From positions 1-56,211 of IMG/VR virus record IMGVR_UViG_3300030101_003189: 56,211 nt of DNA; one strand, written 5' to 3'. The stretch comes from a virus. Its lineage: Duplodnaviria > Caudoviricetes. The first letter of the stretch is position 1, and every line of letters starts with the position of its first letter. The translations under genes and the position numbers were made by a program. Shown here piece after piece: positions 1-47,234 of this stretch. Below the pieces are notes generated by a model. That model searched no databases and was not told the DNA's origin. It worked only from the letters and a program-made list of their open reading frames with translations.

Positions 1-2949
1 GATAATTATACAGGCGATTTATTAATTAGAAACCAGACAAACGACGGAAATGTTTCTCTTATTTGTGACAATGGTTCTGGAGGTATGGCTGAGTATTTCC
101 GTTTAGATGGTGGGCTAGGTTATAGTGTTGTTAGTAAAACTTTAAATTTTAGTGATAATGTTCCAGCGTCATTTGGAGGTGGCGGTGATTTATCACTAAG
201 ACACAATGGGACTGATTCAGAAATTATAAATTATACAGGCAATTTAATTTTAAGAAACAATGCAGACGACAAAGATATTGTATTTCAGTCTGATGACGGT
301 AGTGGAAGCACAGAAACCTATTTCTTTTTAGATGGATCAGCTTCAAGTGGTAATCCTGTTACAAACTTCCCTGACAACTCAGCTTTAACTTTTGGAAATG
401 ATCGTGATTACTGGATTTATCACGATGGGACTAATTCTAGAATATCAAATTATGTAGGTGATTTGGTTATTAGAAATTATGCTGACGATAAAGATATTGT
501 TTTTGTATCAGACGATGGGTCAGGCGGTATAGCTGAATACTTCCGTTTAGATGGTGGTTTGGGTTACTTATTTGTTAGCAAAACTTTAAATTTTGCTGAC
601 AATGTTCCTGCAACATTTGGCCCATCAGGGGACTTAAATATTAGGCACGATGGAAGTAATTCATTAATAACTAATAACACAGGTAATTTAAATATTACAA
701 ATGCTACTGACGACGGTGATATCATATTTGAATGTGACAACGGCTCTGGTGGTTTAGCTACTTACTTCCGCTTAGATGGTAGCGAATCTCAAACTAGATT
801 TGAGAAACATATAAAATTATCTGATTCTGTTGAACTGCGATTAGGTACTAGTAACGATCTAAAAATTTACCATGATGGTTCTAATAGTTACATTGACGAC
901 ACTGGAACAGGCGATTTATACATAAGAGCCAACAATTTGCGTTTATCAAATGCAGACGGCACTGGTCAAACTATAAATGCCAACAACGGTGGAGCGGTTG
1001 AATTATATCACAACAACTCAAAAAAATTCCAGACATCTTCAACAGGAGCCACAATAACTGGAAATCTTGTCATGGGTGGAGGGCAAGTTAAATTTGCCGA
1101 TAGTGGTAGAGTTAGGCTTGGGGATAGTAACGACTTAGATTTATATCACGATGGTACAGATTCATATATAGAAAATGAGACTGGCACTTTAATTATAAGT
1201 AACAATGTTGATAATGCTGATATTAGGTTGCAAGCCTCTGGCGGATCTGGTTCTGCTTCTGATTATCTAATTTTAGATAGTAGCCAAACTGCTGTACGAC
1301 TAAAAAGAAAAACTAAACTTGATGACAACTTAGATCTTTGTTTTGGAGATGGCGAAGATTTAAAGATTGGTTTTGACGGGACTAACTCCACATTTAGTCA
1401 GACTGATGGTAACATGAGGTTTATTCAGTATACAGACGATAAAGACATTATCTTTATGAGTGATGATGGTTCTGGCGGAGTTACAGCTTACTTAACAATA
1501 GATGGCTCTGGGGGTTATATGTGGGCTTCCAAGAGTATTCTTTTAGCTGACAATATTTCAACATCGTTTGGTAACTCTCAAGATTTATTCATCAAACACA
1601 ACGGCACTGATTCAGTTATTGAAAATAATACTGGAGATCTATACATTACAAATAAAACAGACGATAGAGACATCATTTTCCAATCTGATGACGGTTCTGG
1701 AGGTGTAACTGAATACTTCCGTTTAGATGGAGATTCTGGATACACTAAGGCACATAAAGAAATCCGTATGGATGATGCAACACCACTTCGTATTGGAACA
1801 GGTGGTGATGCTCGTTTCATGCACGATGGTAACAATACCTATCTAGATAATTTCACAGGCGACTTTTATATTCGCCAAGCTACTGACGACAAAGATTTAA
1901 TTTTTCAATGTGATGATAGTAGTGGCGGAATGACGGAGTATTTCCGTTTAGATGGTGCTGACGCAATATCAGTTTTTTCTAGAACTGTCAGACACCTTGA
2001 TACAGTGGTTAGTAGTTTTGGTAATTCAGATGATTTGCGAATATCACACAACGGCACTGATTCAGTTATAGACAATTTTAGTGGAGATCTTTACATATCA
2101 AATAAAGCAGATGATAAAGATATTTATTTTCAATGTGACGATGGTTCTGGCGGTGTAGAAACCTATTTCTATTTAGATGGGTCAATGAACACGGACGGGA
2201 CACCTAAGACAGTGTTCCCTGACAATTCTAAATTGCAGTTTGGATCGGGTGCTGCTGACCTTCGCCTTTATCACAATGGAACAAATAGTTATATCGAAAA
2301 TAATACTGGAGATCTACGCATAACAAATTATGCTGATGATAAAGATATAATTTTCCAATCTGATGATGGTAGTGGTGGAGTAGAAACCTATTTCTTCTTA
2401 GATGGATCATTATCTGGAGGTAACCCATTTACAATATTTCCTGACAATAGTCGGTTAGGTATTGGCACAAGTGCGGATCTACATTTTATCCACGACGGCA
2501 CGGATTCATTAATAAATAACACTGACGGAAATTTATTTATTAGTAATTTTGCTAATGACAAAAGCGTATATTTAAGAACCGACGACGGTAGTGGTGGGAT
2601 TGCAACTTATTTACAATGTCGTGGTGATCGTGAAGTAGTACAACACCACAGAGGTGTTGAGTATAATACAGTTCTTTCAAACAACTCTGATTACACAGTA
2701 GGTTCAGCAAATCATGTTATACTTATGCACGGTATGAGTGCAGGTAGAACTGTTAATATACCAGCAGCCCAATGTAATTCTGGACGAGTTTTAATTGTTA
2801 AAGATAGGGACGGAACTGCTGCTACTCATAATATTACAATAGCGACAGGGGGCTCTGAAACCATCGACGGAGGGGCTACACATACTATATCCACTAATCG
2901 TGGTTCAGTAACCCTTATTTCTGATGGATCTAATTGGTTTATTATTTAA
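1..2949 (+). CDS. Repetitive tail fibre / receptor-binding protein (5'-truncated)
   Basis: Frame 1 is open from base 1 (DNYTGDLLIRNQ...), so the ATG at 85 is internal. About 12 copies of a ~75-aa Gly/Asp/Asn-rich unit (YFRLDG...FG...DL.I.HDGTDS.I.N.TGDL.I...DDKDIIFQSDDGSGG), then a distinct C-terminal beta-rich domain; lies upstream of the lysis genes. Confidence 0.75.
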   Translation, partial: DNYTGDLLIRNQTNDGNVSLICDNGSGGMAEYFRLDGGLGYSVVSKTLNFSDNVPASFGGGGDLSLRHNGTDSEIINYTGNLILRNNADDKDIVFQSDDGSGSTETYFFLDGSASSGNPVTNFPDNSALTFGNDRDYWIYHDGTNSRISNYVGDLVIRNYADDKDIVFVSDDGSGGIAEYFRLDGGLGYLFVSKTLNFADNVPATFGPSGDLNIRHDGSNSLITNNTGNLNITNATDDGDIIFECDNGSGGLATYFRLDGSESQTRFEKHIKLSDSVELRLGTSNDLKIYHDGSNSYIDDTGTGDLYIRANNLRLSNADGTGQTINANNGGAVELYHNNSKKFQTSSTGATITGNLVMGGGQVKFADSGRVRLGDSNDLDLYHDGTDSYIENETGTLIISNNVDNADIRLQASGGSGSASDYLILDSSQTAVRLKRKTKLDDNLDLCFGDGEDLKIGFDGTNSTFSQTDGNMRFIQYTDDKDIIFMSDDGSGGVTAYLTIDGSGGYMWASKSILLADNISTSFGNSQDLFIKHNGTDSVIENNTGDLYITNKTDDRDIIFQSDDGSGGVTEYFRLDGDSGYTKAHKEIRMDDATPLRIGTGGDARFMHDGNNTYLDNFTGDFYIRQATDDKDLIFQCDDSSGGMTEYFRLDGADAISVFSRTVRHLDTVVSSFGNSDDLRISHNGTDSVIDNFSGDLYISNKADDKDIYFQCDDGSGGVETYFYLDGSMNTDGTPKTVFPDNSKLQFGSGAADLRLYHNGTNSYIENNTGDLRITNYADDKDIIFQSDDGSGGVETYFFLDGSLSGGNPFTIFPDNSRLGIGTSADLHFIHDGTDSLINNTDGNLFISNFANDKSVYLRTDDGSGGIATYLQCRGDREVVQHHRGVEYNTVLSNNSDYTVGSANHVILMHGMSAGRTVNIPAAQCNSGRVLIVKDRDGTAATHNITIATGGSETIDGGATHTISTNRGSVTLISDGSNWFII

Positions 2950-20444: not shown

Positions 20445-23400
20445 GTGACAGAAAAACCGTTATTTAATCCTGAAGGATTATTTCCTTCCACGCCTATGCA
20501 AAATGAGCCTTCAGAGGGTCCGTTGAAATTATCTCAATGGAGTTCAACGTCGGGGGCAGAACTATCTGATCTGGACAAAGTACTTGGATACTCAAATTAT
20601 TTAAGGCAACATAGCTTAGATCAAGGTACTTTAGATAGAGAAGCGGAGATAGGTATAACTACAGCTACAGCTCAAATGTTAGGTCGAGTAGATCCTACAT
20701 ACAAAATGTCTATGGATGTAGGAACTACTGATACAGATGCAGCTTTGATAGGTCAAGCTTTTGGTGAAGATGCAAAAAATAACTTTATCGAATCTTTAGA
20801 TAAAGGTTTTACAAGAAACGATTTTACAGAAGAATTAAACGAAGCTAAACAGCACCTTGTTGAAAATGGAACGCTAAAACTTGCTTCTTTAAAAAAGAAA
20901 AGTGCTGAAGGGAATAACTATTTTGAAGTCATTGGAGCTTCAAATATTGTTGATAAAAACAAAGCGGTCAATGATGCATTAAATGCAGGAGCATTACGTC
21001 ATAGAGATATGTGGCAAGTCCCTACTGGACTTGAAGAATTTTCAGCAGGTGTCTCAAGGTTCAAAGCTATTACAGCTAATAAAATTAGAAATGAGTTCGC
21101 AGCAGCATCAAAGAGTGAGGAGAATAAAGACCTCTATGACGAAGTACGGGCAGAAGCTAAAGAACATTTTTCTTCTGAAGGTAATGATCCCTCTGCCCTG
21201 ATTACTAAGTCTAGAGACTTGTTATCTAATATTAGATCAAGTGACTCAGGTATATCTAATGAAGCGTTTCGTGCTAGGTTTGATGATGATGACATCATGG
21301 GAGTGTTAGAACAACTTGCTGTCTCTGATCAATACGCATCTGGAGAAGCTAAGTTTATATCAGACCCAGAAAAATTAGGGGACAACATAAAAGTTACTAG
21401 TAATGGACACGCTATAGCACACTTAGAACTCATACTAGATAAACAAAAATTTGAAGCAGCCCTTAATCAAAAAGAGCTATCTGATAACCAAAGAGATCAA
21501 CTAACAAATTACAGGGGATGGTGGTTTGATGCTCATTATGAGGGCTACAATGAAATGTTTTCTGACTCCACTGTTTCGGATGAGTGGACAGAAGCCAAGA
21601 TTCAGGGTGCAACTGAATCTAAAAGTAATGGTCAGATTTTAGAAGAGTTTATTGGGGATGACTCTAATTATTCAGGATTCAAGAACAGGTTAGGTTTATT
21701 TGTAGACTCTATAAAAGATTCTTTTACAGGTTTAGTAGCAGTAGCTCCTGCCTTATTTGGTAATAAAAACGCAATAAACTATTTATCAGAACAAGAACAA
21801 GACAGAGTAAATAGGCGAGAGGTAGCAAAAGTTTTTGGGGATGAGTTTGGAATAGCTGCTGATGTAGGGAGTATGATAGCTCCTGTATTAGTTGATATAG
21901 GAGCTACTGCAATGCTAAGTGCAGGAACTCTTGGTCTGGGGGGACTAGCTTATATAGGAGGTAAGCAAGGGGTTCGAGTAACTGTAAAGGGTCTTGTTAC
22001 CAGTATGACTGGTAGTATCCTGTCAAAACAATTTGGAGAAACAGCAGCCGATACCGCAGTTAGATTAAGTGCTAGGAAACTGATTGAAATATCAGGTAAA
22101 GGTGGAGCTAAAGGAACTATGGAAGCTATACAAGCTTACAATAAATTAGCTGCTACTAAATTTTTCCGCAGAGGGACACAAACACCATTTTTATTTGCTA
22201 CAGCAGCGAACAGATCGGCTGGCGGTACGTATGCCACTGTCTATAATAATTTTGAAGGTACTCATGATGAAAAACATGATGCTGCATTAGGAGCTGCTTT
22301 AAGAGCTGGCACAGCTACTGGTTTAATAACATCCGCTTTTAGTTTTGTTGGAGCTGGTGGTCTTGAAGACGCTTTACTACGTGGTATGACATATAGCCAA
22401 AAAGTTTTTATGCTTAACAGAATCGGGGGTAGTCCAATCACCCAACTGAATGTTAAGAAATCTAATGAACTTATCAAGGCTCACATACAAGGGAGGCTAG
22501 ATAAGCTTAGTAAAACTAATTTTGGTGATATCTACCAAAGGTTTTTAAGGGCTGGTACAGAAGAATTTGTGGAGGAGGCTTTAGATGAATTTATAAATCA
22601 ATTTATTGTAGATGCTTCTCTAGATAGAGAGACACCACTCATCGATAAAATATCAGGAGCCATGTACGCAGGACTTCTTGGAGGTATCATAGGTCAGGGT
22701 GCTGCTGGAGCTAGGTCAATAATCAATAAGAATAATAGAGAAGCTGCTAGTATTTTTATGGCTCAAGAAGAAGATGCTTTGATTAATGCTTTGAGAGAAA
22801 GTGGATCTCCTTTGACAGCTAATGTCCTTAGTAACGTAAGCAGTTCTCAGTTAACTCAAGGAGAGCTATCTGAGTTAGCAGTAGAAAGACAAACAAGGCA
22901 ACTGCTAAGAATGCCCGCAGGAGCCGAACTACCAACAACTGGACCTGCAATAGAAATTGCTGAGAAAGCTAGTTTAGACGAACAAGGTTCAATAAATAAA
23001 ACTAGTGCTGAGTTAAAAGAAGAACGCTTAAATAATTTAATAAACCCTGATCCAGAAGTCCAACAAGAAGCACAAGATCTAGTTAAACAAGCTAACAACA
23101 GTGAGGTCCAAATAGATTTAGAAGAAGAATTAAAGTCGGAAGATTTCCAAAACTTTAGGGAAGAACAAGCAGCTAAAGGAACCAAAGAAGAAAACATAGA
23201 AGAGGATAATGTACTTGATCCAAATGTAGAACTACAGCAGGAAGCAAATAGACAAATAGAAGAAAACATAGAGGCTTCATCTAAAATAGATCCTGAAGTA
23301 GCTTTATCGGAGGAAGAACAAGCTAAGATACAGAAAAAGTTTCAAGATAACTTATCCAATATGTTAAATATTGTAGATAGGTTTGGGGCTAAAATTGAAT

Positions 23401-26400
23401 TTGATGATAACGCAAAAACGTCATTTGCATTTAATCCTAGCTCTCAATCAATAATTATTAACAAAGGACAGGTCGCTGGGCTAATAGCTAACCTTAACGC
23501 TCGTAATGGTAAAGCACTTACCAAAGCAATTCTGACAGAGGAACTTATACATAAAGGGTCATATAACATTCTGACAAAAAGTGAACGTAAGGCTGTGTTT
23601 GATACCCTTAGTAAGAGTGAACAAAATAAACTTGTTGATAATTATTACAGAACTCCAGAAGACAGAGCAGCAGCTAAACAAAGACTTGCTGAAAACAACA
23701 CTCGTGAAAGAGAGACAGTTGTAGAGGAACTAATGCGTATGGAAGCTCAGAAAGCAATGTCTGGGTTTACCAGTGAAGAAAACTATGAGTTCTTTAGCCA
23801 GAACCCAAGTGCTTTACGTGTCTTCCTTAGATACCTACAGAATCTAGTAAGCAGACTTAGAAGATACTTTGAAGCGGAGCCTGATAACCCATACTTAGCA
23901 GCCACTACAAACAGAGTGATCAGAGCGTACAACGCAATGAAGAATGGTTTTGAGGTTACTTCATTACCAGCGTTTTCTCCAGACAATCCTGCAAACACAT
24001 TTGAACTTTTAGCAAGTCAGATTAGAACTGAGGGTGAAAAACCATTCAGTGATGTTGAAGGTATAAATGAGGTTGCAGGACAACGTCTTGTAGATGCAGC
24101 TACAAATGCTGAATACTTAGAACTAGCCAAAGATCCAAAGAAGAACAAACAAGCTCTTCAAGATATGGTGGACAAAGCTGCCATAGCTGCGGGGTACAAT
24201 TCAAACGAAGTGTACCACGGAACTCCTAATGAGTTCACAGCTTTTGATTATGATAAGATAAATTCTGGGACGGGGTTTGCTTTTGGATTAGGTTTTTATT
24301 TTGGCGGTAATAGAAATATGGCTTCGGGATACGCACTTGCAAACGGGAATATTATTCCTGCGTATTTGAAAATTGAAAATGGAATCCCTCATGATACTCC
24401 TGCACTTTCTAGTGCGGAACTAGTACCCATACTTCAAGAAATAGCCGAAGCCGAGCTTCAAGAACTAAGAGTAGATAATCCTGAAGCAAATGAATTCGAA
24501 ACTACTTTAGGCGATTATGGAGGAATTGAGGCTGCTGCTGATCTGATAGCTGATGGTAACGACACAATAGCAGAACAAACGGGGGAACTTTTTAATGCGG
24601 GTGTATCAGCTAAAAATGTACTAGAAGCCTTTAAAAAAATTACTGGTATTGATGCCTTCTATTCAAATGCTAGGGGGGAAAAGGCGATTATAGTAGTCCT
24701 GACACCTGAGCAAATAAAGTTATCCGATCCTGTAACTTACGATGCAGAAGGTAATATTATACCATTAGCTGAAAGGTTTGATGAAACCACCGACGAGCTT
24801 GTAAGATCGTCCATTGTTTCGGGTGTAGAGTACAGGGTTCATGATGCACAAAGCCTGATCGATGAAACATTTGCAAACAACGCAATAGGCATAGATAGAG
24901 ATCCGATTGATTCTGGTTTACGAGGAAGCAGAGTACATGAAATTGCCAAATTATTTGATTCTTTAATTAAAGATGAAGAAAGAATTATTTGGAATGAATC
25001 TAAAGAAGGCACTGATAAGTATGCTGAGAATGTAAGTAGGGCAGGTGACCGAGTTGCTAATCTATTACATAGAAGTATGGATGAGTATCCTCAATTCGCT
25101 ACGTGGTACGAAGAGCGGATTGATATGGCAATGGATATTTTTGAAGAGTTAGATCCTGACATAAGTAAACCAGAAAATTCGTTTGTACTAAAAATACTAT
25201 TAGCCGTTACTTCAAATGGAGCAAAAGTATTAACACAAACAAAAGATAGTTGGAATATTTACAAAGAATGGAAGAAAACAGGTAAACTAAATAACGCAGT
25301 TAGATCTTCAGGAGATAGGGGGGATCAAGTAGCTAAACACTTAGCTGATACTGATAATTTTATTGAGAGAGTTGGTTGGGAAAAGTTAAAAGCTTTCTTT
25401 GATCGTTCTGGAACAGTAGCCGAAGTAAGAGACGCTTTGGTATCAGATCTAGGAGTGGATTCTGAAGTAGCTAAAGACATATTAAAGAGTAAAGGGGAAC
25501 TAATTGATGAGGTAGTTCCTTTTAGTATATTCTACGGACCGAAGTTAGGTTCTTTTTACCATAATTTAAATGGTAAGTTTGATTCTATAACTATGGACAG
25601 ATGGTTTTTGAGAACCTTTGGAAAGTTAACAGGTACTCAACTTAAAAAAATAAGTAGGAAAGTAATGGCAGAAAAGAGAGATAGGTTCGCAAGAGCCTTC
25701 CGTGCCTATGTAGCTTCTGACCCCAAAGGTGGTTTGTTATCTGCTGCGGGATTATCAACAAGATTAAAAGATCCGAAGGGAGAGACTCGTGATAATGTGG
25801 TAGCTGCTTTAGTAAAATATTTTGCCAAGAAACCAAACCGATCTTTTTATTACGACAAAAAAACAGGGGATAGAATACCAACAGATGAAAAACTTATACC
25901 TAAGAAAGCTCCGAAGTTAGCTGACTTACGCTTGGCTGCAAACGGGTTAAAACTTTATTTGGATGGAGTGACTGTAAAAGATGATCCAGAAGGAGGAGGT
26001 CACAGAAGATTTACTAGACAAGCAATGCTTGATGGTATTAATAAATTAGAACAAAGAACAGGAACAAAGTTAGTGCCAGCAGAGGCACAAGCACTATTAT
26101 GGTATTATGAAAAAGAAACGCACAGATTATTCGGGTCAGCCCAAGAAAGAGATCCCGACTACGGATCAGCAGCCAATGAAGTCTTCCGAAACGAACGTGG
26201 GGAAGATGCCATCAATTTCAGACCTTCTATCGGAAACAGAAGACGTTCCGAGCAACGAACCGATGATATCGGATCTGATGCACGGGTCGATAGAACAGGA
26301 GAAGATGTACTGGAAAGCGATGATGAGGTTATAGCTTCACAATTAAGTCCTGATACAGCGAGTAAAAAAGCGTTAGCTAGGTTTGGTGACCTGACAGGTA

Positions 26401-29400
26401 TGCTTGAAGTACCTCAGTACTACACAGGAAAATACAGAGGTAAATTTACTGGACTTAAAAAATGGTTGAATGGAGTAGCAGGTGAAGCTGATCCAAGGCT
26501 TAGAGAATTATACGAGAACGAAGTAAACTTACGTAATGCTGTAGGAGAGCAGGTAGATTTGTGGAGAAATAAACTTCAAGAGTTAGTTCTTAAAGCATAC
26601 CCCAAAGGCAACCCTCCTATAGATTTGTTTAGAAAAATCACAGGTGACCCAGAAGGTATGTCCCTGTCTCGGAACACAGTTGGCTACATAAACAACTTAG
26701 TAGGTAAAGCTAAACGGAAAGTTGGTCTTGAGAAGAAGAAAGCACAAGCAGATTTAGATTCTAACGACCCCTTGTTCCAAGAAGCAGAGCAGAAATATGT
26801 AAATGATTTAGCGGTTATAGATAACTACAAGACGCAGCTTTACAACAAAGCGTATGCAGCACAGAAAAAAGTGATGCAGAGAGAAAAGAACGAAGCCATC
26901 GAAGCACTTGGTGGTTTTGATAGTGATGGTGTACCCAAGGGGGAGTTAGCACAACATCTTTTCGGTCTTAGGGCGCAGATTGATGAGTTTTCAAAAGCAA
27001 TAAGAAACCTTTATCCTAATGACCCAGACGCTCACAGAGATCTAAGAGCTACTATAGATAGAAACCTAGAAGTATACTTAACTAGGTCTTATCGTTTGTT
27101 TACGGAAGCTGGTTTCATACGTAAGGTTATGTATGAACCTAACTATAAAAGTACAAGAGACAATGCAGTTAAGTTTTTTGAAGCTCAATACATAAAGGAG
27201 AGAGGGCGTTCACTCTTCAAAAAAGAAGACGTAGCAACACTTCAACAAGCAGAAGAACAAGCACTTCAAGAACTTCGTGACTCTCCAACCAACCCAGATA
27301 GTGGTTTAACGGAGATAACACATGGTTTAATGATAGAGTTTTTAAATATGTATTCACCTAAATCTAATGGGTGGTTACAAGTAAAACCTCAAATGACGTT
27401 CAGAGGTGGTAAATCTTTTGGTACTGTGTTGGCAGATAAACTAAAAGACAGGAAGAACATACCTAAAGAACTCAAAGCTCTCATGGGAGAAGAAGTAGAT
27501 GCTACTGGTTATGATGCTGCCTTACGTACATATATGCACGTTGGTATCATGGCATCCCACCAAGCATTTTTAAGGAACTTAGTGCAAGTAGGTAGGGAAG
27601 GAAAAGAAGGAGAGAAATGGTTACTAACCGCATCTGAAGTACAAAAAGAACCTAACGCAAAGGACTATGAAATGATAGACTTGAGGTCTGATAAAGCGTT
27701 CAACCCTTTTATAATCGATGGTCAAACTTTATACGCTCACAAAGACTTGATTGAGTCTGTCAGAGCAATGGGAGCTAGTACTGATTACGTACTCAACGAA
27801 ACTGATAAAGCAGCATCTTACATAAACAGAACTATTGGTGTTATGACAGGATCGGCAATGGCAGCGAAGACTCTTGGTTCTGTAGGGTTCTACATGAGGA
27901 ACGCATTGGGTAACGTACTTTACTTTGGTTTGTCTCAAGGAAATCTACCCACACTTAGTATGGGTAAAACTTTCGTGAAAGAGATAGGACGGAAGAAGCT
28001 TTTCTTTTTACGAGGTAAGCTAAACAGAGAAGCTGTCCAAGCTTACTACTCAGAACTAAAAGCCCTTGGTGTAATCGGAGATGAGCTTAGACCTAAAATG
28101 CTAGAGGAATTATTCTCTGGTGAGAAGACACCTGCTCAAATGATGGAAGAGGCTACTGGTATTGTGGAAGAGATTGGTAAGTTAGATTCAATTAAAAATA
28201 AAACCAAATCAGTGAGAAAGACTATCGATGGTTTGTACTCTAACTTGAAAGATCTATCAGCAGCGATGGATACTTTTTACAAAATTGACTATTTTGAAAG
28301 AGAATTAAAAACAATCAAGAAAGCGGTAGCAGCAGCAAAAAGTAATGACACAGAGTACTATCAACTAAGTGAGTACCAAATGCAGAGAAAAGCTGCTCGC
28401 ATAGTTAAGAGAACAGCTCAATCTTTTAGTCAAGCAATGCCTTTTATAAAAGGATTCGCTAAATCTTCTGTTGGTCAGATGTTTGCTCCGTTCGTCAGGT
28501 TTAAAGGGGAAGTAGCTCGTATCACAGTCAACACGACTGTACAGGCTTTCCAAGAACTAGCACACCCAAACAGTGTTATAAAGCTGAGAGGTGCTAGGAG
28601 ACTAGCAGGTCAGACGGCTGTCATGGGCGGTATATCTGCAATGGTTCCTGTCTTGTTGAGACTTGCTCAGAACATAACAGATGAAGAGGACGAAGCTTTA
28701 AGAGCCACCACAGTGTCCTACTTGAAGAACCATACGTTTTTCATAGCAAAAGGGTTTATACCTAAAGTGCAGGATGAAAACAAATTGTACACATGGGACT
28801 TTACATACCTCAATCCATTCTCACTCGTAGTAGATCCGTTCATAAGATCATTTGAAAAAATAGCTCAAGGAAAAGATACAGGAGAGGTTATGAAAGTCTT
28901 CGCTGAGTCCTTGATATTTGACCAATACCTTGATGAACAAATCTTTGCAGGGGCTTTACTAGCACTCAGAAAGAACAAAGACCCAGAAACTGGACGAGCC
29001 ATTTGGGGAACTCAAGAAGATTCCTTTGATCAGTTTTACAAAATGGGAATGTTCCTATGGGAAGAGGCTTTTCAACCTAAAGTAATACAAACAGGTAGGG
29101 AAGTTGCAAAAGGGCTGACAGTGGATAAAGAAAAAGCTTTAGAGCAAGCACTGCTACGAATAGCTGAAGAGTTCCTACCACTCAAACCTTACGAATTAGA
29201 CTTGAGAACCAACCTCTCTAGATACATGAACAGTATAAGGATGGAAACTCAAATAGCTTCTAGAGGTAAGAACAAAGCTTTCTTCGCAGATAAGATGTCT
29301 AAACAAGATGTGTTTGATATCGTAGATACAGAACTCGAATACAAAAAGAACATTGATAGACAAGCATACAAAGTATTTAATGGCATTATGGAACTGTCTA

Positions 29401-29636
29401 AGAAAACGGACACACCAATAACTGAGGATGAACTTAGGAAACTAGCATTGGCTAACCAGATAGGTAAGAGACGCTTTAGTCTCATCATGCGTGGTATGAC
29501 AGAGACTCCAAGGAAAGCAAACATAGACTTCCAGAAGAGACTACGTGCTAAAATGCAGGAAGACCCTAAGTTTGTAGAAAGAGCTGACCAGTTTAACGAG
29601 GCTTACAAATCTTATCCGAGGTACTTGTTCCACTAA
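20445..29636 (+). CDS. Giant polyvalent internal virion / DNA-ejection protein (peptidase-like, ART and HhH-glycosylase-like domains)
   Basis: 3063 aa. Gly/Ala hydrophobic segments near 21870-22720; EELIH zincin-like motif near 23538; VYHGT...GFYF...QIKLSDPVTYD ART-PolyVal signature 24110-24785; WY...LLAVTS...GPK...TMDRW...QALLW domain 25100-26115. Confidence 0.75.
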   Translation: MTEKPLFNPEGLFPSTPMQNEPSEGPLKLSQWSSTSGAELSDLDKVLGYSNYLRQHSLDQGTLDREAEIGITTATAQMLGRVDPTYKMSMDVGTTDTDAALIGQAFGEDAKNNFIESLDKGFTRNDFTEELNEAKQHLVENGTLKLASLKKKSAEGNNYFEVIGASNIVDKNKAVNDALNAGALRHRDMWQVPTGLEEFSAGVSRFKAITANKIRNEFAAASKSEENKDLYDEVRAEAKEHFSSEGNDPSALITKSRDLLSNIRSSDSGISNEAFRARFDDDDIMGVLEQLAVSDQYASGEAKFISDPEKLGDNIKVTSNGHAIAHLELILDKQKFEAALNQKELSDNQRDQLTNYRGWWFDAHYEGYNEMFSDSTVSDEWTEAKIQGATESKSNGQILEEFIGDDSNYSGFKNRLGLFVDSIKDSFTGLVAVAPALFGNKNAINYLSEQEQDRVNRREVAKVFGDEFGIAADVGSMIAPVLVDIGATAMLSAGTLGLGGLAYIGGKQGVRVTVKGLVTSMTGSILSKQFGETAADTAVRLSARKLIEISGKGGAKGTMEAIQAYNKLAATKFFRRGTQTPFLFATAANRSAGGTYATVYNNFEGTHDEKHDAALGAALRAGTATGLITSAFSFVGAGGLEDALLRGMTYSQKVFMLNRIGGSPITQLNVKKSNELIKAHIQGRLDKLSKTNFGDIYQRFLRAGTEEFVEEALDEFINQFIVDASLDRETPLIDKISGAMYAGLLGGIIGQGAAGARSIINKNNREAASIFMAQEEDALINALRESGSPLTANVLSNVSSSQLTQGELSELAVERQTRQLLRMPAGAELPTTGPAIEIAEKASLDEQGSINKTSAELKEERLNNLINPDPEVQQEAQDLVKQANNSEVQIDLEEELKSEDFQNFREEQAAKGTKEENIEEDNVLDPNVELQQEANRQIEENIEASSKIDPEVALSEEEQAKIQKKFQDNLSNMLNIVDRFGAKIEFDDNAKTSFAFNPSSQSIIINKGQVAGLIANLNARNGKALTKAILTEELIHKGSYNILTKSERKAVFDTLSKSEQNKLVDNYYRTPEDRAAAKQRLAENNTRERETVVEELMRMEAQKAMSGFTSEENYEFFSQNPSALRVFLRYLQNLVSRLRRYFEAEPDNPYLAATTNRVIRAYNAMKNGFEVTSLPAFSPDNPANTFELLASQIRTEGEKPFSDVEGINEVAGQRLVDAATNAEYLELAKDPKKNKQALQDMVDKAAIAAGYNSNEVYHGTPNEFTAFDYDKINSGTGFAFGLGFYFGGNRNMASGYALANGNIIPAYLKIENGIPHDTPALSSAELVPILQEIAEAELQELRVDNPEANEFETTLGDYGGIEAAADLIADGNDTIAEQTGELFNAGVSAKNVLEAFKKITGIDAFYSNARGEKAIIVVLTPEQIKLSDPVTYDAEGNIIPLAERFDETTDELVRSSIVSGVEYRVHDAQSLIDETFANNAIGIDRDPIDSGLRGSRVHEIAKLFDSLIKDEERIIWNESKEGTDKYAENVSRAGDRVANLLHRSMDEYPQFATWYEERIDMAMDIFEELDPDISKPENSFVLKILLAVTSNGAKVLTQTKDSWNIYKEWKKTGKLNNAVRSSGDRGDQVAKHLADTDNFIERVGWEKLKAFFDRSGTVAEVRDALVSDLGVDSEVAKDILKSKGELIDEVVPFSIFYGPKLGSFYHNLNGKFDSITMDRWFLRTFGKLTGTQLKKISRKVMAEKRDRFARAFRAYVASDPKGGLLSAAGLSTRLKDPKGETRDNVVAALVKYFAKKPNRSFYYDKKTGDRIPTDEKLIPKKAPKLADLRLAANGLKLYLDGVTVKDDPEGGGHRRFTRQAMLDGINKLEQRTGTKLVPAEAQALLWYYEKETHRLFGSAQERDPDYGSAANEVFRNERGEDAINFRPSIGNRRRSEQRTDDIGSDARVDRTGEDVLESDDEVIASQLSPDTASKKALARFGDLTGMLEVPQYYTGKYRGKFTGLKKWLNGVAGEADPRLRELYENEVNLRNAVGEQVDLWRNKLQELVLKAYPKGNPPIDLFRKITGDPEGMSLSRNTVGYINNLVGKAKRKVGLEKKKAQADLDSNDPLFQEAEQKYVNDLAVIDNYKTQLYNKAYAAQKKVMQREKNEAIEALGGFDSDGVPKGELAQHLFGLRAQIDEFSKAIRNLYPNDPDAHRDLRATIDRNLEVYLTRSYRLFTEAGFIRKVMYEPNYKSTRDNAVKFFEAQYIKERGRSLFKKEDVATLQQAEEQALQELRDSPTNPDSGLTEITHGLMIEFLNMYSPKSNGWLQVKPQMTFRGGKSFGTVLADKLKDRKNIPKELKALMGEEVDATGYDAALRTYMHVGIMASHQAFLRNLVQVGREGKEGEKWLLTASEVQKEPNAKDYEMIDLRSDKAFNPFIIDGQTLYAHKDLIESVRAMGASTDYVLNETDKAASYINRTIGVMTGSAMAAKTLGSVGFYMRNALGNVLYFGLSQGNLPTLSMGKTFVKEIGRKKLFFLRGKLNREAVQAYYSELKALGVIGDELRPKMLEELFSGEKTPAQMMEEATGIVEEIGKLDSIKNKTKSVRKTIDGLYSNLKDLSAAMDTFYKIDYFERELKTIKKAVAAAKSNDTEYYQLSEYQMQRKAARIVKRTAQSFSQAMPFIKGFAKSSVGQMFAPFVRFKGEVARITVNTTVQAFQELAHPNSVIKLRGARRLAGQTAVMGGISAMVPVLLRLAQNITDEEDEALRATTVSYLKNHTFFIAKGFIPKVQDENKLYTWDFTYLNPFSLVVDPFIRSFEKIAQGKDTGEVMKVFAESLIFDQYLDEQIFAGALLALRKNKDPETGRAIWGTQEDSFDQFYKMGMFLWEEAFQPKVIQTGREVAKGLTVDKEKALEQALLRIAEEFLPLKPYELDLRTNLSRYMNSIRMETQIASRGKNKAFFADKMSKQDVFDIVDTELEYKKNIDRQAYKVFNGIMELSKKTDTPITEDELRKLALANQIGKRRFSLIMRGMTETPRKANIDFQKRLRAKMQEDPKFVERADQFNEAYKSYPRYLFH

Positions 29637-43023: not shown

Positions 43024-43212
43024 TTAATCCTCTACTACATCAAGACCAACACAAATTTTAGGTGGCAGTGGTGTAACCTGTGTTTCAAGATTAACCCTTA
43101 CTGCTGGGTCTGTGAATGGAATTGGTAGACCTACTTTAGCGTTGGTTGTGTCACAAGCTACGTTGGCGAGTGCTACAAAAGCTAGACCGAGTAATACAAT
43201 TATTTTCTTCAT
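43024..43212 (-). CDS. Small antisense lipoprotein
   Basis: MKKIIVLLGLAFVALANVA-C lipobox; own promoter TGGAAA-N17-TAGATT-N5-ATG at 43218-43246. Confidence 0.7.
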   Translation of the reverse strand: MKKIIVLLGLAFVALANVACDTTNAKVGLPIPFTDPAVRVNLETQVTPLPPKICVGLDVVED

Positions 43213-43280
43213 ATGTTAATCTAAGCATGGAGTCTAAAAATTTCCACTGTAAAAAATTCAAATGAAGTATATATTTTATA

Positions 43281-43553
43281 ATGCCCAATTACAAAAAAAG
43301 TAAAAAACAATTTTTACAATCTTATAAGGGTAAGGGTATGGGTGGTAGTTCTGAAACTCCAGCCCCTAGGGCTTTACCTGTAGAGACAAAGAAAAAAGCA
43401 CCTAAAGCTGAGAAGGTAGGTGGGCAAACTCTTCCTGATGAAGAAATAGAAAAGTTTCACAAAAACCTAAATAAGTTTAAACAAAGAAATTTTGAACGTG
43501 AACAAAAAAAGAAAAAAGAAGCTATAGAGTTTTATAAAAGTTTAAGAACATAA
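43281..43553 (+). CDS. Small basic hypothetical protein
   Basis: 90 aa, Lys-rich. Confidence 0.6.
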   Translation: MPNYKKSKKQFLQSYKGKGMGGSSETPAPRALPVETKKKAPKAEKVGGQTLPDEEIEKFHKNLNKFKQRNFEREQKKKKEAIEFYKSLRT

Positions 43554-43556
43554 GAT

Positions 43557-43679
43557 ATGAAAATGACAAAAAAAGAATTCATAAAGTCGCACAGCAACAC
43601 CAAACAGGCTAATAATAAGCAAAAGAAGAAAAAAAGTAAGCGTCAATCTAATAATAGCTCTTACGGAAGTACTTATTAA
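43557..43679 (+). CDS. 40-aa basic peptide, not in the ORF track
   Basis: MKMTKKEFIKSHSNTKQANNKQKKKKSKRQSNNSSYGSTY, starting 3 nt after the previous stop. Confidence 0.45.
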   Translation: MKMTKKEFIKSHSNTKQANNKQKKKKSKRQSNNSSYGSTY

Positions 43680-43749
43680 ATAGCTTCATAAAATACCCTG
43701 TTGCATATATAAAAAATAAGATTATTTTATATATGTTAACAACTCATAC

Positions 43750-43851
43750 GGTTGCTCTAGCCATAAATAGTTCTAGTGGGAAGTTATCAATGGGCTGTGT
43801 TCCGTTCCATACTCAATCTACTTGGTTGCTCTAGCCATAAATAGTTCTAGT
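43750..43851 (+). repeat. Perfect 28-bp direct repeat in the capsid gene leader
   Basis: GGTTGCTCTAGCCATAAATAGTTCTAGT at 43750-43777 and 43824-43851, separated by 46 nt. Confidence 0.95.
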
Positions 43852-43944
43852 TCAGTAGATTCCAATAACTTTATTTAGATCGTCTCCAGAACGAAACAGG
43901 AGAGGTCTGTACTACTATAACTTAACAATTAGAAAACAAATAAA

Positions 43945-45318
43945 ATGGCCTTTGGACCTCCAAGCACTCTGTCAGCCCCCGCATCAGGATCGGCTGCGGA
44001 TCAAACTATTAACACAATATTGACCCAAGAAGCGGGTAGAATTGGTGCTGATATACATAAAGCAACTCTTCACACCAGCCCTTGGATTGATCTTATTAAA
44101 CAATCTACATTCCCAGAAGGAATGGGTTATACACTCAACACTTTGATTTATGACCGTGCTCTCCCCGTGTCTCCTCTCGACGCAGATCTTGATGAATCTG
44201 CTGCTCTTGTAGGTACTAACTGGAGTGCTCTAGGTACTACACAAGGATCAGCTTCTGCTGGTTTTATTGCTAACACAACTGAGTCTACTACAGCAGCACC
44301 AACAGGTGGGGATAATGTTAACCACATTGACTTCTCTAAAGTGCTTAAAACTTACAGCCTTAGTAGAGCTGTCATTGAATCTCCACATATCAATGTAGAA
44401 GAGCTTCGTTATGCAGCCCACCGCACAGAGCAACTCCGTGCGATTATGGATTTGCTTAAAGAGTCCACTCGTTCTTCTTGGGAGAATCGTTATCGTCAAC
44501 AGTACGATAAGGTATGTAACAATGTTGTTTACGCTAAAACTGCTTCTTCTATCTTTGCTAGTGGTGCTGAAGGTAAAGCAACACACTCTACTGACTCATC
44601 TGAGCTTTTAGATGTAGATGCTGCTACTACTGCTGGTGGTGATGGTGGAACAAGTGATAATGTTGTAGATGCAACTGCAAACATCTCTAACGCTCTTTTG
44701 GATAAGATTTACTTCCAACTTGTGCGTAAAGGTGCTGGAAACAATGCACATGGAGTTGAGAATGGTAGGCCAGTATTTACATTGGTTTGCTCATCAGAAG
44801 CATCTTATCAGTTGATGACTGAGTCTGGATTCCGTGATGATGTACGTTACAACAATTCTAGAGTGAGTGAGCTTATTGCTCCTTTAGGTGTTGAGAAGTC
44901 TTTCAGAGGTTTCTATCACTTGATTGACGACATGCTTCCACGTTTTAACGCTGCTCTAACTGGTGGAAACGACAACCTTGTTGAAGTACCTGTCTACGAC
45001 GTAGACCACTCAAACAAGAAAGTTGTAATGAACGCAGCTTATGATAGTGCTGCTATCGAAGTAGCCTACATATTACACGAAAGTGTAATGGAGTCCTTGA
45101 TTCCTGCGCCTGTCACTAATGTAAGTGGTCTTTCATTTGATCCAGTCAGCTATAAAGGTGACTTCAAGTGGACTAACATTCCTGATATCGTGCGTAACCC
45201 AGATGGAAACATTGGTTTCTTCAGGGGTATCATGGCTTCAGCTTCCAAGCCTATTAAGACAGACTTTGGTTATGTGATTCTCTTCAAGAGAGATTCCGCT
45301 ACACCTGCTGCTGTTTAA
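43945..45318 (+). CDS. Major capsid protein
   Basis: 457 aa downstream of portal and scaffold; strong codon bias, A-rich leader, strong terminator after it. Confidence 0.8.
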   Translation: MAFGPPSTLSAPASGSAADQTINTILTQEAGRIGADIHKATLHTSPWIDLIKQSTFPEGMGYTLNTLIYDRALPVSPLDADLDESAALVGTNWSALGTTQGSASAGFIANTTESTTAAPTGGDNVNHIDFSKVLKTYSLSRAVIESPHINVEELRYAAHRTEQLRAIMDLLKESTRSSWENRYRQQYDKVCNNVVYAKTASSIFASGAEGKATHSTDSSELLDVDAATTAGGDGGTSDNVVDATANISNALLDKIYFQLVRKGAGNNAHGVENGRPVFTLVCSSEASYQLMTESGFRDDVRYNNSRVSELIAPLGVEKSFRGFYHLIDDMLPRFNAALTGGNDNLVEVPVYDVDHSNKKVVMNAAYDSAAIEVAYILHESVMESLIPAPVTNVSGLSFDPVSYKGDFKWTNIPDIVRNPDGNIGFFRGIMASASKPIKTDFGYVILFKRDSATPAAV

Positions 45319-45362
45319 TTTAATGCGGGGTTCTTAAAAGGAACCTTACATAAATACTTCAC

Positions 45363-45408
45363 AATAACCTCGATCCTCTTGCAAAAATGGGGATCGGGGT
45401 TATTTTTT
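45363..45408 (+). terminator. Rho-independent terminator after the capsid gene
   Basis: AATAACCTCGATCCTC / GGGGATCGGGGTTATT stem with G-U pairs, followed by a T-run. Confidence 0.8.
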
Positions 45409-45424
45409 ATAAACAATTAATATT

Positions 45425-45793
45425 ATGGCAGAAGTAGCAGAACAACCAATGGAATCAGTCGAAGAGCCTAGTACAGACGCTATGCTTGACGAACTTGTAA
45501 GTGTTTTACCAGAAGAAGGAGATGATCTTTCTGTAGAGGACATGGAACAAATGGTAGAAGAAGAAGAAGAGCAGCCTGAAGAAGTAGCAGCTCCTAGTGA
45601 AGAAATTTTTATGGATTTGTTTGAAACTATCTATGGGGAACCTGTAGATGATTCAGAAGAAGCTCAAGATCAAATGCAAGATATACAAGAGTTAGTCATG
45701 GCGATGCCTGAGTTAGCTGCTGCATTATCTTCAGGAGATATGAGTCCCTCTGAAGCTGCCTTGATGATATTTAGAGAAGCTTCCTCTATGTAA
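45425..45793 (+). CDS. Extremely acidic hypothetical protein
   Basis: 122 aa, Glu/Asp-rich, no Lys. Confidence 0.7.
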   Translation: MAEVAEQPMESVEEPSTDAMLDELVSVLPEEGDDLSVEDMEQMVEEEEEQPEEVAAPSEEIFMDLFETIYGEPVDDSEEAQDQMQDIQELVMAMPELAAALSSGDMSPSEAALMIFREASSM

Positions 45794-45796
45794 GGG

Positions 45797-46504
45797 TTAT
45801 TCTTTCCCTACCAAAGTTTCAATTAAAGCTCCACTGAATAATCTTGAACCACAATGAGTAAGCTTTGCGTGGGCATCACAATATATTTTACCACCTATTT
45901 TTGTCCATAGGTTACAGAAAGCTAAGTCTTCACCTACACCTGAGTGTCCATTTTCTGAAGTGCTACAATCAAAGTATGTGTAGTAGTTTGGTTCTTCTGT
46001 CACTACCCCTTCAATAAGGTGGCGTATAAAAACTTTTTTCTCAGGATAGGCTTCGTGTAGTTTTTCAAAAACTTTTCTATCTATCATCATAAAACCTGCT
46101 GGCCCTGCTTCTATCTCTATAAAACCTTGTTCATCTACGGCTATGTTGCTTGGATCTTTATAGTGAACAACAAAATTATTATTTTCTTCACCTGAATAAG
46201 TTTTAACTACATAAGGAGCTAGAACTACATCTTCATTTTTTCTTAAAAGCCTCCAAATGTTTTCGGGTTCAAATCCTATATCGGAGTCTATAAATAGAAG
46301 TTTTGTACAATCCGTCTTTAAAAATTCAAGAACACAATTATTTCTAGCGTGTGTAACTAGGGAAGATCCAGAGTGTAAGTGTAAAGATGTTTCATATTCT
46401 AGATCTTCTGGGGATGCACTAGCAACAAAGTTAATCAAACCGTGCATATAATCTATAAAGGCTTGATATCCGTATGTTGGAGTCGCTATAAATAATTTTT
46501 CCAT
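45797..46504 (-). CDS. GT-A fold glycosyltransferase (antisense moron)
   Basis: IATP, ARN, LLFIDSD (DxD), GFMMI, GEDLAFC, LTH.G motifs; likely start MEKLF at 46504. Confidence 0.8.
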   Translation of the reverse strand: MEKLFIATPTYGYQAFIDYMHGLINFVASASPEDLEYETSLHLHSGSSLVTHARNNCVLEFLKTDCTKLLFIDSDIGFEPENIWRLLRKNEDVVLAPYVVKTYSGEENNNFVVHYKDPSNIAVDEQGFIEIEAGPAGFMMIDRKVFEKLHEAYPEKKVFIRHLIEGVVTEEPNYYTYFDCSTSENGHSGVGEDLAFCNLWTKIGGKIYCDAHAKLTHCGSRLFSGALIETLVGKE

Positions 46505-46570
46505 ATCTGATATTCGGTTTATATAGTGATAAGTCAATTAATTTTCACAAGTACTGTGGGGGTGGGGAGC

Positions 46571-46599
46571 TTGCTATTTGCTTGCTTTAGACCTATAAT
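46571..46599 (+). promoter_or_regulatory. Sigma70-like leaderless promoter of the tail module
   Basis: TTGCTA-N17-TATAAT-N5-ATG(46605). Confidence 0.7.
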
Positions 46600-46604
46600 T
46601 AAGG

Positions 46605-47234
46605 ATGCCAACTTCAATATCAGGAAATGTTAGGCTGGTGTATGGTAATCATGTACATAGTGAGACATATAGCACATCAGCCTCCGCATATAGTAATACA
46701 AACCCATTTAATGAGTATGCATCAGGAGGGGCTAGGGCTTTGGTTGCAGGTGGTGCTATAGATGTAGGTACTCTCGTTGTTTCAGGATCTGATCCCCAGC
46801 ATGAGGGGTTATTAATTATTAAGAACACAAATACTGTTGGTAGTCTTTCTGTCAGTGTTGATGGGGGGACTGCTTATGATATTAGTATACCAGCAGGATT
46901 AGTTAACTTAATCTCTGTTGGTCCTGATCATCCAGTCCATGTTAAATGCCCGACGGCTACTAACAATGGTTTGGGTGTTGCTTCTGTAACAAGCGCAGGA
47001 GTTATTACTTTTGATGGAAGTGCTGGTGCTGTTGGAACTGCTATAATGGAAGGCAAAACTAATGTAAACAGCAACACCAATAAATATATAGTTCAAATTT
47101 CTACACAAGGAACTGGAACAGTATACGAACTAGATGGAGTTACTAAAAAAGATTTAACAAGTGATTATGGGGCTTCGTCCACAGTAGATTTAGTGTATTT
47201 CACTGGATATCGTTATACACTAACTGAAGCTTAA
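46605..47234 (+). CDS. Virion structural protein (beta-rich)
   Basis: 209 aa, Gly/Ser/Thr/Val-rich, in the late module. Confidence 0.55.
   Translation: MPTSISGNVRLVYGNHVHSETYSTSASAYSNTNPFNEYASGGARALVAGGAIDVGTLVVSGSDPQHEGLLIIKNTNTVGSLSVSVDGGTAYDISIPAGLVNLISVGPDHPVHVKCPTATNNGLGVASVTSAGVITFDGSAGAVGTAIMEGKTNVNSNTNKYIVQISTQGTGTVYELDGVTKKDLTSDYGASSTVDLVYFTGYRYTLTEA

Follow-up and report, generated by a model that had tools for sequence, protein, structure and literature searches.

The leader of a candidate major capsid gene in the virus record IMGVR_UViG_3300030101_003189 (Caudoviricetes) carries two copies of a small RNA module, which almost certainly forms a conserved structure on the sense strand and which may serve as a docking site for a trans-acting factor. 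The window analyzed here is the whole virus record, 56,211 nucleotides (nt) long, with an estimated completeness of 91%. As a preliminary description of this DNA had stated, a 28-nt motif, GGTTGCTCTAGCCATAAATAGTTCTAGT, occurs there twice, 46 nt apart. Exact copies were located on the + strand at 43750-43777 and 43824-43851, and no further match with up to three mismatches was present in the 56,211 nt, leaving two matches in total. None of 100 dinucleotide-preserving shuffles contained two matches to the repeat, which indicates that the 28-nt duplicate is not due to chance. The two copies are enclosed by different stems, both of which had been pointed out before and are present in the sequence. 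Specifically, copy 2 is closed by a perfect stem of eight base pairs, AATCTACT (43815-22) with AGTAGATT (43854-61), and copy 1 is surrounded by an imperfect stem, AACTCATAC (43741-49) with GTGGGAAGTT (43776-85). The layout of the leader is given below, where P1 is the closing helix of a module, S2 a short inner helix, HP3 a third hairpin, and R1 a covariance model of the single module, built from 11 seed units.

43701..43728, + strand: predicted sigma-70-like promoter, TTGCAT (43701-06), 16-nt spacer, TATTTT (43723-28)
43741..43785, + strand: module 1, with the P1 5' arm at 43741-49 and the P1 3' arm at 43776-85
Inner parts of module 1, + strand: core GGUUGCUCUAGCC at 43750-62, A-rich linker at 43763-67, UAG (3' strand of S2) at 43768-70, UUCUA at 43771-75
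43743-43780, + strand: R1 match to module 1, E 1.1e-7
43791..43804, + strand: inter-module mini-hairpin GGG/UCC, read from the sequence
43815..43861, + strand: module 2, with P1 arms at 43815-22 and 43854-61 forming a perfect 8-bp stem
Inner parts of module 2, + strand: core at 43824-36, linker at 43837-41, UAG at 43842-44, UUCUA at 43845-49
43817-43859, + strand: R1 match to module 2, E 4.3e-9
43877..43908, + strand: hairpin HP3 (AGAUCGUCUCC...GGAGAGGUCU), ending in GGUCU and carrying a conserved GGAG within the 3' arm
43909..43944, + strand: A/U-rich leader up to the ATG, with no Shine-Dalgarno sequence and no hairpin called
43945..45318, + strand: major capsid protein candidate of 457 amino acids, HK97 fold (open reading frame and fold match)

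Comparison of the modules among related phages provided the main evidence for structure. The closing helix P1 was present in all 140 distinct units, usually with 5-12 base pairs (full range 3-15), and its left arms comprised 93 distinct 8-mers. The mean helix score of P1 was 12.7, compared with 6.5 when the arms were taken from different units and 6.7 when the right arm was reversed. On alignment A3, double-sided changes were found at 7/7 pairs of P1, and 89.7% of P1 cells were paired, vs. 63.7% in shuffles (0/500 as high) and 16-38% when the partner was slid by 1-3 columns; these A3 values lean towards structure because the alignment was fitted to the model structure, a bias that the mismatched-partner control does not share. 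The earlier picture of identical cores held on different closing stems was thereby upheld, with P1 covarying and the stems differing both between copies and between phages, and the covariation check proposed for the closing stems gave a positive answer.

Inside P1, the module runs GG-Y-N-GCU-[CUA]-R-CC, then an A-rich linker, then [UAG]-UUCUA, where the bracketed triplets form helix S2. This helix of three base pairs joins core nucleotides 8-10 to the three bases before UUCUA and was seen through variant cores and through a divergent clade of relatives. In 73 distinct units, 218 of 219 S2 cells were paired, with double-sided changes at all three pairs (5, 10 and 15 rows) and seven combinations (CUA/UAG, CUG/CAG, CCG/CGG, UCG/CGA, CCA/UGG, UUG/CAA and UUA/UGA), counts which lean towards structure in that the unit parser favored the S2-paired parse where several were possible. 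A further candidate helix, S1, would pair the 5' GGY with the 3' RCC of the core. Its third pair was U.G in 53 of the 73 units, C-G in 14, U-A in five, U.U in one and C.A in none. The GG and CC never vary and therefore carry no covariation information, so that S1 is compatible with pairing, with a third pair that is statistically not strong. S1 and S2 inside P1 likely make up a small H-type pseudoknot, in which the A-rich linker would form the third loop. Short linkers were 54% A, and those of the divergent clade carried optional GNRA-capped hairpins of 15-25 nt. The GG, GCU, CC and UUCUA blocks were invariant or nearly so.

The strand on which the fold exists was read from its mismatches. Strand-neutral helix calling returned 55 G.T and 12 A.C at internal non-Watson-Crick positions, and this excess of G.U over A.C places the fold on the sense strand, i.e., in the capsid transcript. 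The claim of a structured RNA in the capsid-gene leader thus finds its support in the covariation of P1 and S2 and in the strand asymmetry; a minimum-free-energy fold of the whole leader, computed for the window alone, was uninformative (z-score −0.86).

Finer features proposed for the window were retained in relatives to differing degrees. Two CTAG palindromes per copy are present in the window, but the second is not kept in relatives, in which the 3' block reads TAGTTCTAC, TAGTTCTAA or TAGTTCAG in its place. The outer three pairs of the proposed 5-bp GGTTG/TAGCC hairpin survive in 15-nt core variants, whereas its inner two compete with the covarying S2. Both strings of the suggested alternative pairing, AAGTTAT (43781-87) with ATAACTT (43865-71), were found as described, but the pairing is lost with no compensating change in L003, a relative with 98% capsid identity, and no equivalent was seen in more distant leaders when these were inspected by eye, without counting. 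Exact identity between the copies characterizes the window's lineage: the copies were identical from G1 to TAGTTC+2 in just 11 of 81 two-copy leaders, and the core blocks were near-invariant in all.

The divergent clade, recognized by its capsid N-terminus (MAVNAGQ...), retains a single unit. Its second module is replaced by an element of the form GAAGC..GGC-loop-GCC..GUCGC..GCUUC..GCGAC, observed in alignment A6 at L176:399-454, L189:411-464, L204:330-385 and 13 other sites. One helix of this element, Hb (GUCGC/GCGAC), had five pairs, 100% paired, three of them with double-sided changes, and the other, GAAGC/GCUUC, was almost invariant. If both helices form, the replacement element would be a second pseudoknot.

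The presence of the motif was followed across related phages. A protein-guided scan identified 39 related loci with capsid identities of 51-98%, and the strict pattern GGTTGCTCTAGCC-N2-10-TAGTTC was present in 87 viral contigs, mostly twice per locus. The 120 fetched loci with the motif represented 85 distinct regions, nearly all with two copies, and in 85/85 of the motif loci (80 viral contigs and five contigs from metagenome-assembled genomes, MAGs) the capsid N-terminus was encoded downstream. Five related loci lacked the strict pattern (L020, L021, L026, L027 and L033). R1 produced 175 matches in 380 kb: each of 87 sources had two, L027 had one weak match (E 0.69), and L020, L021, L026 and L033 had none. 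All of these matches fell at capsid leaders on the capsid-sense strand, with none elsewhere, and in 5/5 complete relatives there were exactly two, both at the capsid leader. Two units were counted in 71 of 111 distinct leaders, 52-81 nt apart from start to start, with a gap between modules of 27-57 nt. The motif is therefore present in relatives, as had been expected, down to about 51% capsid identity.

Cellular genomes were also searched (185,579 genomes; 596 Gb) and yielded 16 pattern matches. Five of these were tandem and lay on short MAG contigs, upstream of the same capsid gene. The other 11 were single and without closing stems, and six of them were orthologous (five Methylophaga genomes and one Gammaproteobacteria MAG). 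By our own arithmetic, about 39 matches are expected by chance for 19 fixed bases in 596 Gb. The 11 single matches are consistent with chance, leaving no real cellular copy outside phage contigs binned into MAGs. The MAG-binned phage contigs (L136, L138, L139, L140 and L146) carried the labels Acidimicrobiaceae, Opitutae (two contigs, one MAG), Blastopirellula and Verrucomicrobiales, a weak hint at phage hosts in Verrucomicrobiota or Planctomycetota.

Upstream of the modules, a sigma-70-like promoter pattern (TTGnnn-16..18-nAnnnT, at least 8/12 matches) was found in 58 of 81 leaders, its 3' end lying 14-23 nt upstream of core 1, compared with 0/67 control windows inside the open reading frame (ORF). 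The implied transcription start of the window is near 43735-37, which is 4-6 nt before hairpin 1. A start downstream of the repeats had been named as a finding that would refute an RNA model, and the predicted promoter lies upstream of them. Terminators upstream of the promoter gave no signal (16/78 vs. 4/34 control segments).

Between the modules, the mini-hairpin was recovered by strict pattern in 8/65 distinct spacers, which makes it a minor, lineage-limited feature. Downstream of them, the hairpin HP3 at 43877-43908, which had been listed as a possibility, is present and is the strongest local hairpin from copy 2 to the ATG (−11.3 kcal/mol). HP3 was strong (free energy, dG, of −8 or below) in 48/60 distinct leaders. 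In an alignment of 18 sequences nine lower-stem pairs were kept, two with double-sided changes, so that little covariation was seen. A T run followed the strong hairpins in 2/48 leaders (at least six T in the next 9 nt) or in 4/48 (at least five T), and the window has four T in 9 nt. Given so few T runs, HP3 is not a general terminator; its role as an intrinsic terminator or attenuator was rejected on this ground, and no + strand terminator was called in 43200-44200. The distance from the 3' end of HP3 to the ATG in relatives was mostly 24-45 nt (full range 2-45). Most genes of the window genome, including the capsid gene, are without a Shine-Dalgarno sequence. The last 40 nt of several capsid leaders (L011, L013 and L041) consist of UUAAC or CUUAAC repeats, which we take to resemble A/U-rich translation enhancers.

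Two other candidates in the leader were considered and rejected. A leader peptide could be drawn from a 14-codon ORF of the window, running from the spacer into the TAG of core 2, with a similar one in L008, but L012 has no ATG there (judged by eye). Pairing of UUCUA with UAGAA near the start codon was confined, also by eye, to an A/T-rich subclade and is not general.

The gene downstream had been called a capsid gene from the sequence of the window, and its predicted fold agrees with this, moderately. The 457-residue product matched no Pfam and no PHROG family, and among 30 of its relatives the sole family match was a stray one to endolysin (E 0.0027). A tblastn search of the protein against 50,697 isolated-phage records returned no match, and a sequence-profile search of the PDB with the capsid alignment returned only a sugar kinase (E 0.03). 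An AlphaFold2 model built with the 30 relatives was of low confidence (mean predicted local distance difference test, pLDDT, 58.6). In an all-against-PDB fold search with this model, all 50 matches listed were phage or herpesvirus capsid or encapsulin entries, the best among those listed having a Z of 7.6 and a root-mean-square deviation of 5.6 over 197 residues. The best 10 Foldseek matches were all phage capsids (best E 8.2e-3). Given the low pLDDT, the fold match counts as moderate, and the gene is moderately supported as HK97-fold capsid-like. A profile scan found relatives of the capsid encoded on 219 contigs, and the window gene (43945-45318) together with those of L003-L041 and L149-L228 looks like an undescribed HK97-fold capsid family from a sizeable uncultured phage group.

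After the capsid stop (45319-45424), a terminator-like structure was observed, consisting of a GGTTC/GGAACC hairpin, then CCTCGATCC...GGGATCGGGG with a 13-nt loop, then TTATTTTTT. By eye, the hairpin and T run lie at about 45372-45410; a terminator scan of 45250-46700 called none. Judged from this hairpin, the capsid mRNA may be a discrete transcription unit. Directly 3' of the capsid gene is an ORF for a very acidic protein of 122 amino acids (45425-45793, +) with no family match, followed by an opposite-strand gene amid the structural genes (45797-46537, −, 246 amino acids). The product of the latter matched PHROG 1574, a family of unknown function (E 4.8e-33), and showed a weak match, below the family cut-off, to the Anp1 glycosyltransferase-like family of Pfam. 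Directly before the leader are two small ORFs for very basic, lysine-rich proteins (43281-43553, +, 90 amino acids; 43557-43679, +, 40 amino acids), neither with a family match. In many relatives the upstream ORF ends instead in a conserved ...sFedAiaAAfG tail. Farther away, an ORF of 3063 amino acids (20445-29636, +) contains the ADP-ribosyltransferase domain of 'polyvalent proteins' (PF18760, E 1.1e-15, residues 1255-1425) and had no other family match. Its product is probably a giant protein of several domains that the virion packages or injects.

The modules were compared with the covariance models of known RNA families, a check which the preliminary description had named. Rfam 15 (4227 models) gave no match at gathering score in the whole window. 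With E values up to 10 allowed in 43650-43960, the only return was mir-4904 (14.2 bits vs. a gathering score of 100), and in the loci of 20 relatives (24,598 nt) it was STnc320 (E 0.45; 26.2 bits vs. 50). The module thus matches no Rfam 15 family.

We favor the reading that a single trans-acting factor docks on the two modules as twin sites and so controls how stable the capsid mRNA is or how it is translated; to this we assign a probability of roughly 40%. The factor would most plausibly be an RNA-binding protein, acting as a dimer or in two copies, and encoded by either the phage or the host. Bound at the 5' end, it would set the lifetime or the translation of the capsid mRNA and thereby when, or how much, capsid protein is made from a promoter otherwise open to the host polymerase as soon as infection begins. 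The variable spacing of the copies (52-81 nt start to start) and the single unit of the divergent clade point to sites that are docked independently and not to a single rigid fold, and the lack of any real copy in the 185,579 cellular genomes fits a phage-specific partner better than a common metabolite. The thrS operator of E. coli offers a similar arrangement, in that two similar hairpins in one leader are bound by a dimeric protein. That operator, which mimics the anticodon arm of a tRNA, overlaps the ribosome-binding site, whereas the modules lie 47-134 nt from the ATG and no tRNA likeness was recognized in them. The T4 gene 32 autoregulatory leader, also mentioned in PMC10690425, combines a 5' pseudoknot with an A/U-rich leader. 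The resemblance is in a far-upstream structured, probably pseudoknotted element followed by an unstructured A/U-rich stretch up to the start codon. The T4 product is a single-strand nucleic-acid-binding protein acting on its own leader, whereas the product here has a predicted HK97 capsid fold, the module is duplicated and HP3 intervenes.

Several points weigh against the docking of a factor. The binding partner is hypothetical. The invariant junction nucleotides, the probable pseudoknot and the optional GNRA-capped linker hairpins would also fit protein-free RNAs, and the replacement of the second module in the divergent clade is easier to understand if any stable fold serves than if a dimer needs identical sites. 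At 47-134 nt (mostly 72-104 nt) from the ATG, the modules are too far away for direct cover of the ribosome-binding site. The transcription start, likely at a sigma-70-like promoter shortly before module 1, is a prediction from sequence, and the window promoter was not listed by a stricter scan (at least 9/12 matches). The bias of A3 and of the unit parser towards structure and the invariance of the GG and CC in S1, described above, count on the same side.

Among the readings that need no protein, a protective structure is rather unlikely: pseudoknotted folds at the 5' end would block an RNase J-type 5'-to-3' exonuclease or the entry of RNase E, and two in series would form a double barrier. 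Conserved cores on different stems at variable spacing, a probable pseudoknot at the very 5' end of the predicted transcript, the exchange of one module in the divergent clade for another structured element with the covarying helix Hb, and HP3 as a third stable hairpin would all suit such a barrier. In flaviviruses, xrRNA1 and xrRNA2 act in series in this way as a double barrier to Xrn1, and in the published accounts the xrRNAs of flaviviruses and plant viruses are likewise tandem compact pseudoknotted folds with conserved cores, diverging stems and further structures after them. In the same accounts they lie in the 3' untranslated regions of eukaryotic RNA viruses and form a three-way-junction ring around the 5' end, whereas the features seen in the modules are a tandem arrangement and a probable pseudoknot. 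For 5'-end protection in bacteria a plain stable hairpin is enough, as in ompA mRNA, which leaves about 21 invariant nucleotides unexplained, and S1 and S2 are just three base pairs each. A broader version, in which the duplicated pseudoknot is a new class of protein-free phage RNA that stops 5'-end-dependent decay or directly captures the ribosome or RNA polymerase, appears rather unlikely as well. Tandem riboswitch aptamers, in which each pseudoknot would bind a small molecule and the pair would sharpen a response tuning capsid mRNA output to the condition of the infected cell, are improbable. The conservation is aptamer-like (covarying helices P1 and S2, invariant junctions, an A-rich third loop and optional loop hairpins), single and tandem arrangements both occur, and the topology resembles that of the preQ1-I riboswitch, a small H-type pseudoknot whose third loop is rich in A. 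The strands are proposed to follow one another as in that riboswitch (S1 5', L1, S2 5', S1 3', A-rich L3, S2 3'), and the size is similar. The modules differ from preQ1-I in their extra closing stem and invariant UUCUA tail and in that no bacterial examples were found. No expression platform was found either, HP3 being without a T run in 44 to 46 of 48 leaders and mostly 24-45 nt before the ATG, and the AAGTTAT/ATAACTT alternative pairing is not conserved. The absence of the module from cellular genomes and from other genes is unusual for a metabolite sensor, and no Rfam riboswitch family matched even at E up to 10.

Nascent RNA acting on the transcription machinery is comparably doubtful. In PMC9378689, put RNA of phage HK022 (putL and putR) is described as about 70 nt long, with two stem-loops and a triple helix, and as working without protein factors. 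A put-like RNA here would bind the host polymerase and suppress pausing or termination for read-through of the capsid unit. Like put, the modules are cis-acting phage RNA with stem-loops and tertiary features, placed directly after a predicted sigma-70-type promoter as putL is placed just downstream of PL, and a hairpin and T run lie after the capsid gene (about 45372-45410, by eye). The compact architecture of put, where two dissimilar stems are packed next to each other in a single unit of about 70 nt, was not found, as the modules are copies of one another 27-57 nt apart. Moreover, put, which binds the beta' zinc-binding domain of RNA polymerase, serves early operons, whereas the motif precedes the capsid gene alone, with no sequence or Rfam relation to put. 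No terminator was called in 45250-46700, and since just one small ORF separates the capsid gene from a gene on the opposite strand, no long operon obviously needs processive antitermination. Small, phage-borne, highly conserved and pseudoknot-containing modules would also befit a pair of self-cleaving ribozymes or an endoribonuclease processing site trimming the 5' end of the capsid mRNA. Read-through from same-strand upstream genes is possible and upstream terminators were no commoner than in controls (16/78 vs. 4/34), so that processing could define the 5' end. We consider this very unlikely: a predicted promoter immediately before module 1 makes trimming needless, no Rfam ribozyme family matched, and neither S2 nor P1 is long and regular enough for RNase III. 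Finally, identical 28-nt direct repeats 46 nt apart beside a promoter could suggest a feature of the DNA itself, either tandem operators or a two-repeat mini-CRISPR, but there is next to no chance that this is correct. Sites in duplex DNA need no covarying closing stems, and the ratio of G.U to A.C of 55 to 12 marks the sense strand; tandem operators were rejected for both reasons. What the mini-CRISPR reading takes for a 'spacer' is orthologous leader sequence in close relatives, there are exactly two copies in 5/5 complete genomes, and the stems outside the repeat differ between copies, which led to the rejection of this reading. A blastn search of 43300-44400 (1.1 kb, including the spacer) against the 50,697 phage records gave no match, and no Cas family was found with Pfam and PHROGs among the 36 ORFs scanned, a part of those in the window. 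The preliminary description had already ranked both as weaker alternatives, in agreement with this outcome.

A 2023 survey of IMG/VR (PMC10690425) listed 8,495 candidate structured RNAs without names, and five of these precede a major capsid protein domain. Its DNAVirus_X, GP20-a and GP20-b candidates are, like the module, comparative-genomics motifs from IMG/VR that lie upstream of phage structural genes. The five capsid-upstream candidates, as given there, lie at most 25 nt from genes with the PHA00201 domain, whereas the capsid described here has no known domain. The core string and two contig names did not occur in the part of the PMC10690425 supplements that was covered, which leaves aside the DNA-virus alignments. 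The motif may therefore be listed in that catalog, unnamed and without description. The 13-nt core string, in RNA or DNA letters, was not found in the literature searched, and no account of the module architecture, the pseudoknot, the tandem form or the tie to this capsid family was seen there.

Structured leader RNAs which govern phage late genes are few and come mostly from model coliphages. The present case has clean comparative support, in which some 140 distinct units show three kinds of helix and both position and copy number are fixed, and the motif is a specific DNA marker of this phage group in metagenomes. If the modules act alone, a new activity would reside in a compact fold of some 45 nt, interesting both for the structural biology of RNA and as a leader element that can be moved between mRNAs. 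If a protein-free barrier is correct, they would be the bacterial-virus counterpart of the xrRNAs of eukaryotic RNA viruses. If they are bound by a protein, they would constitute a new RNA-protein switch for capsid synthesis.

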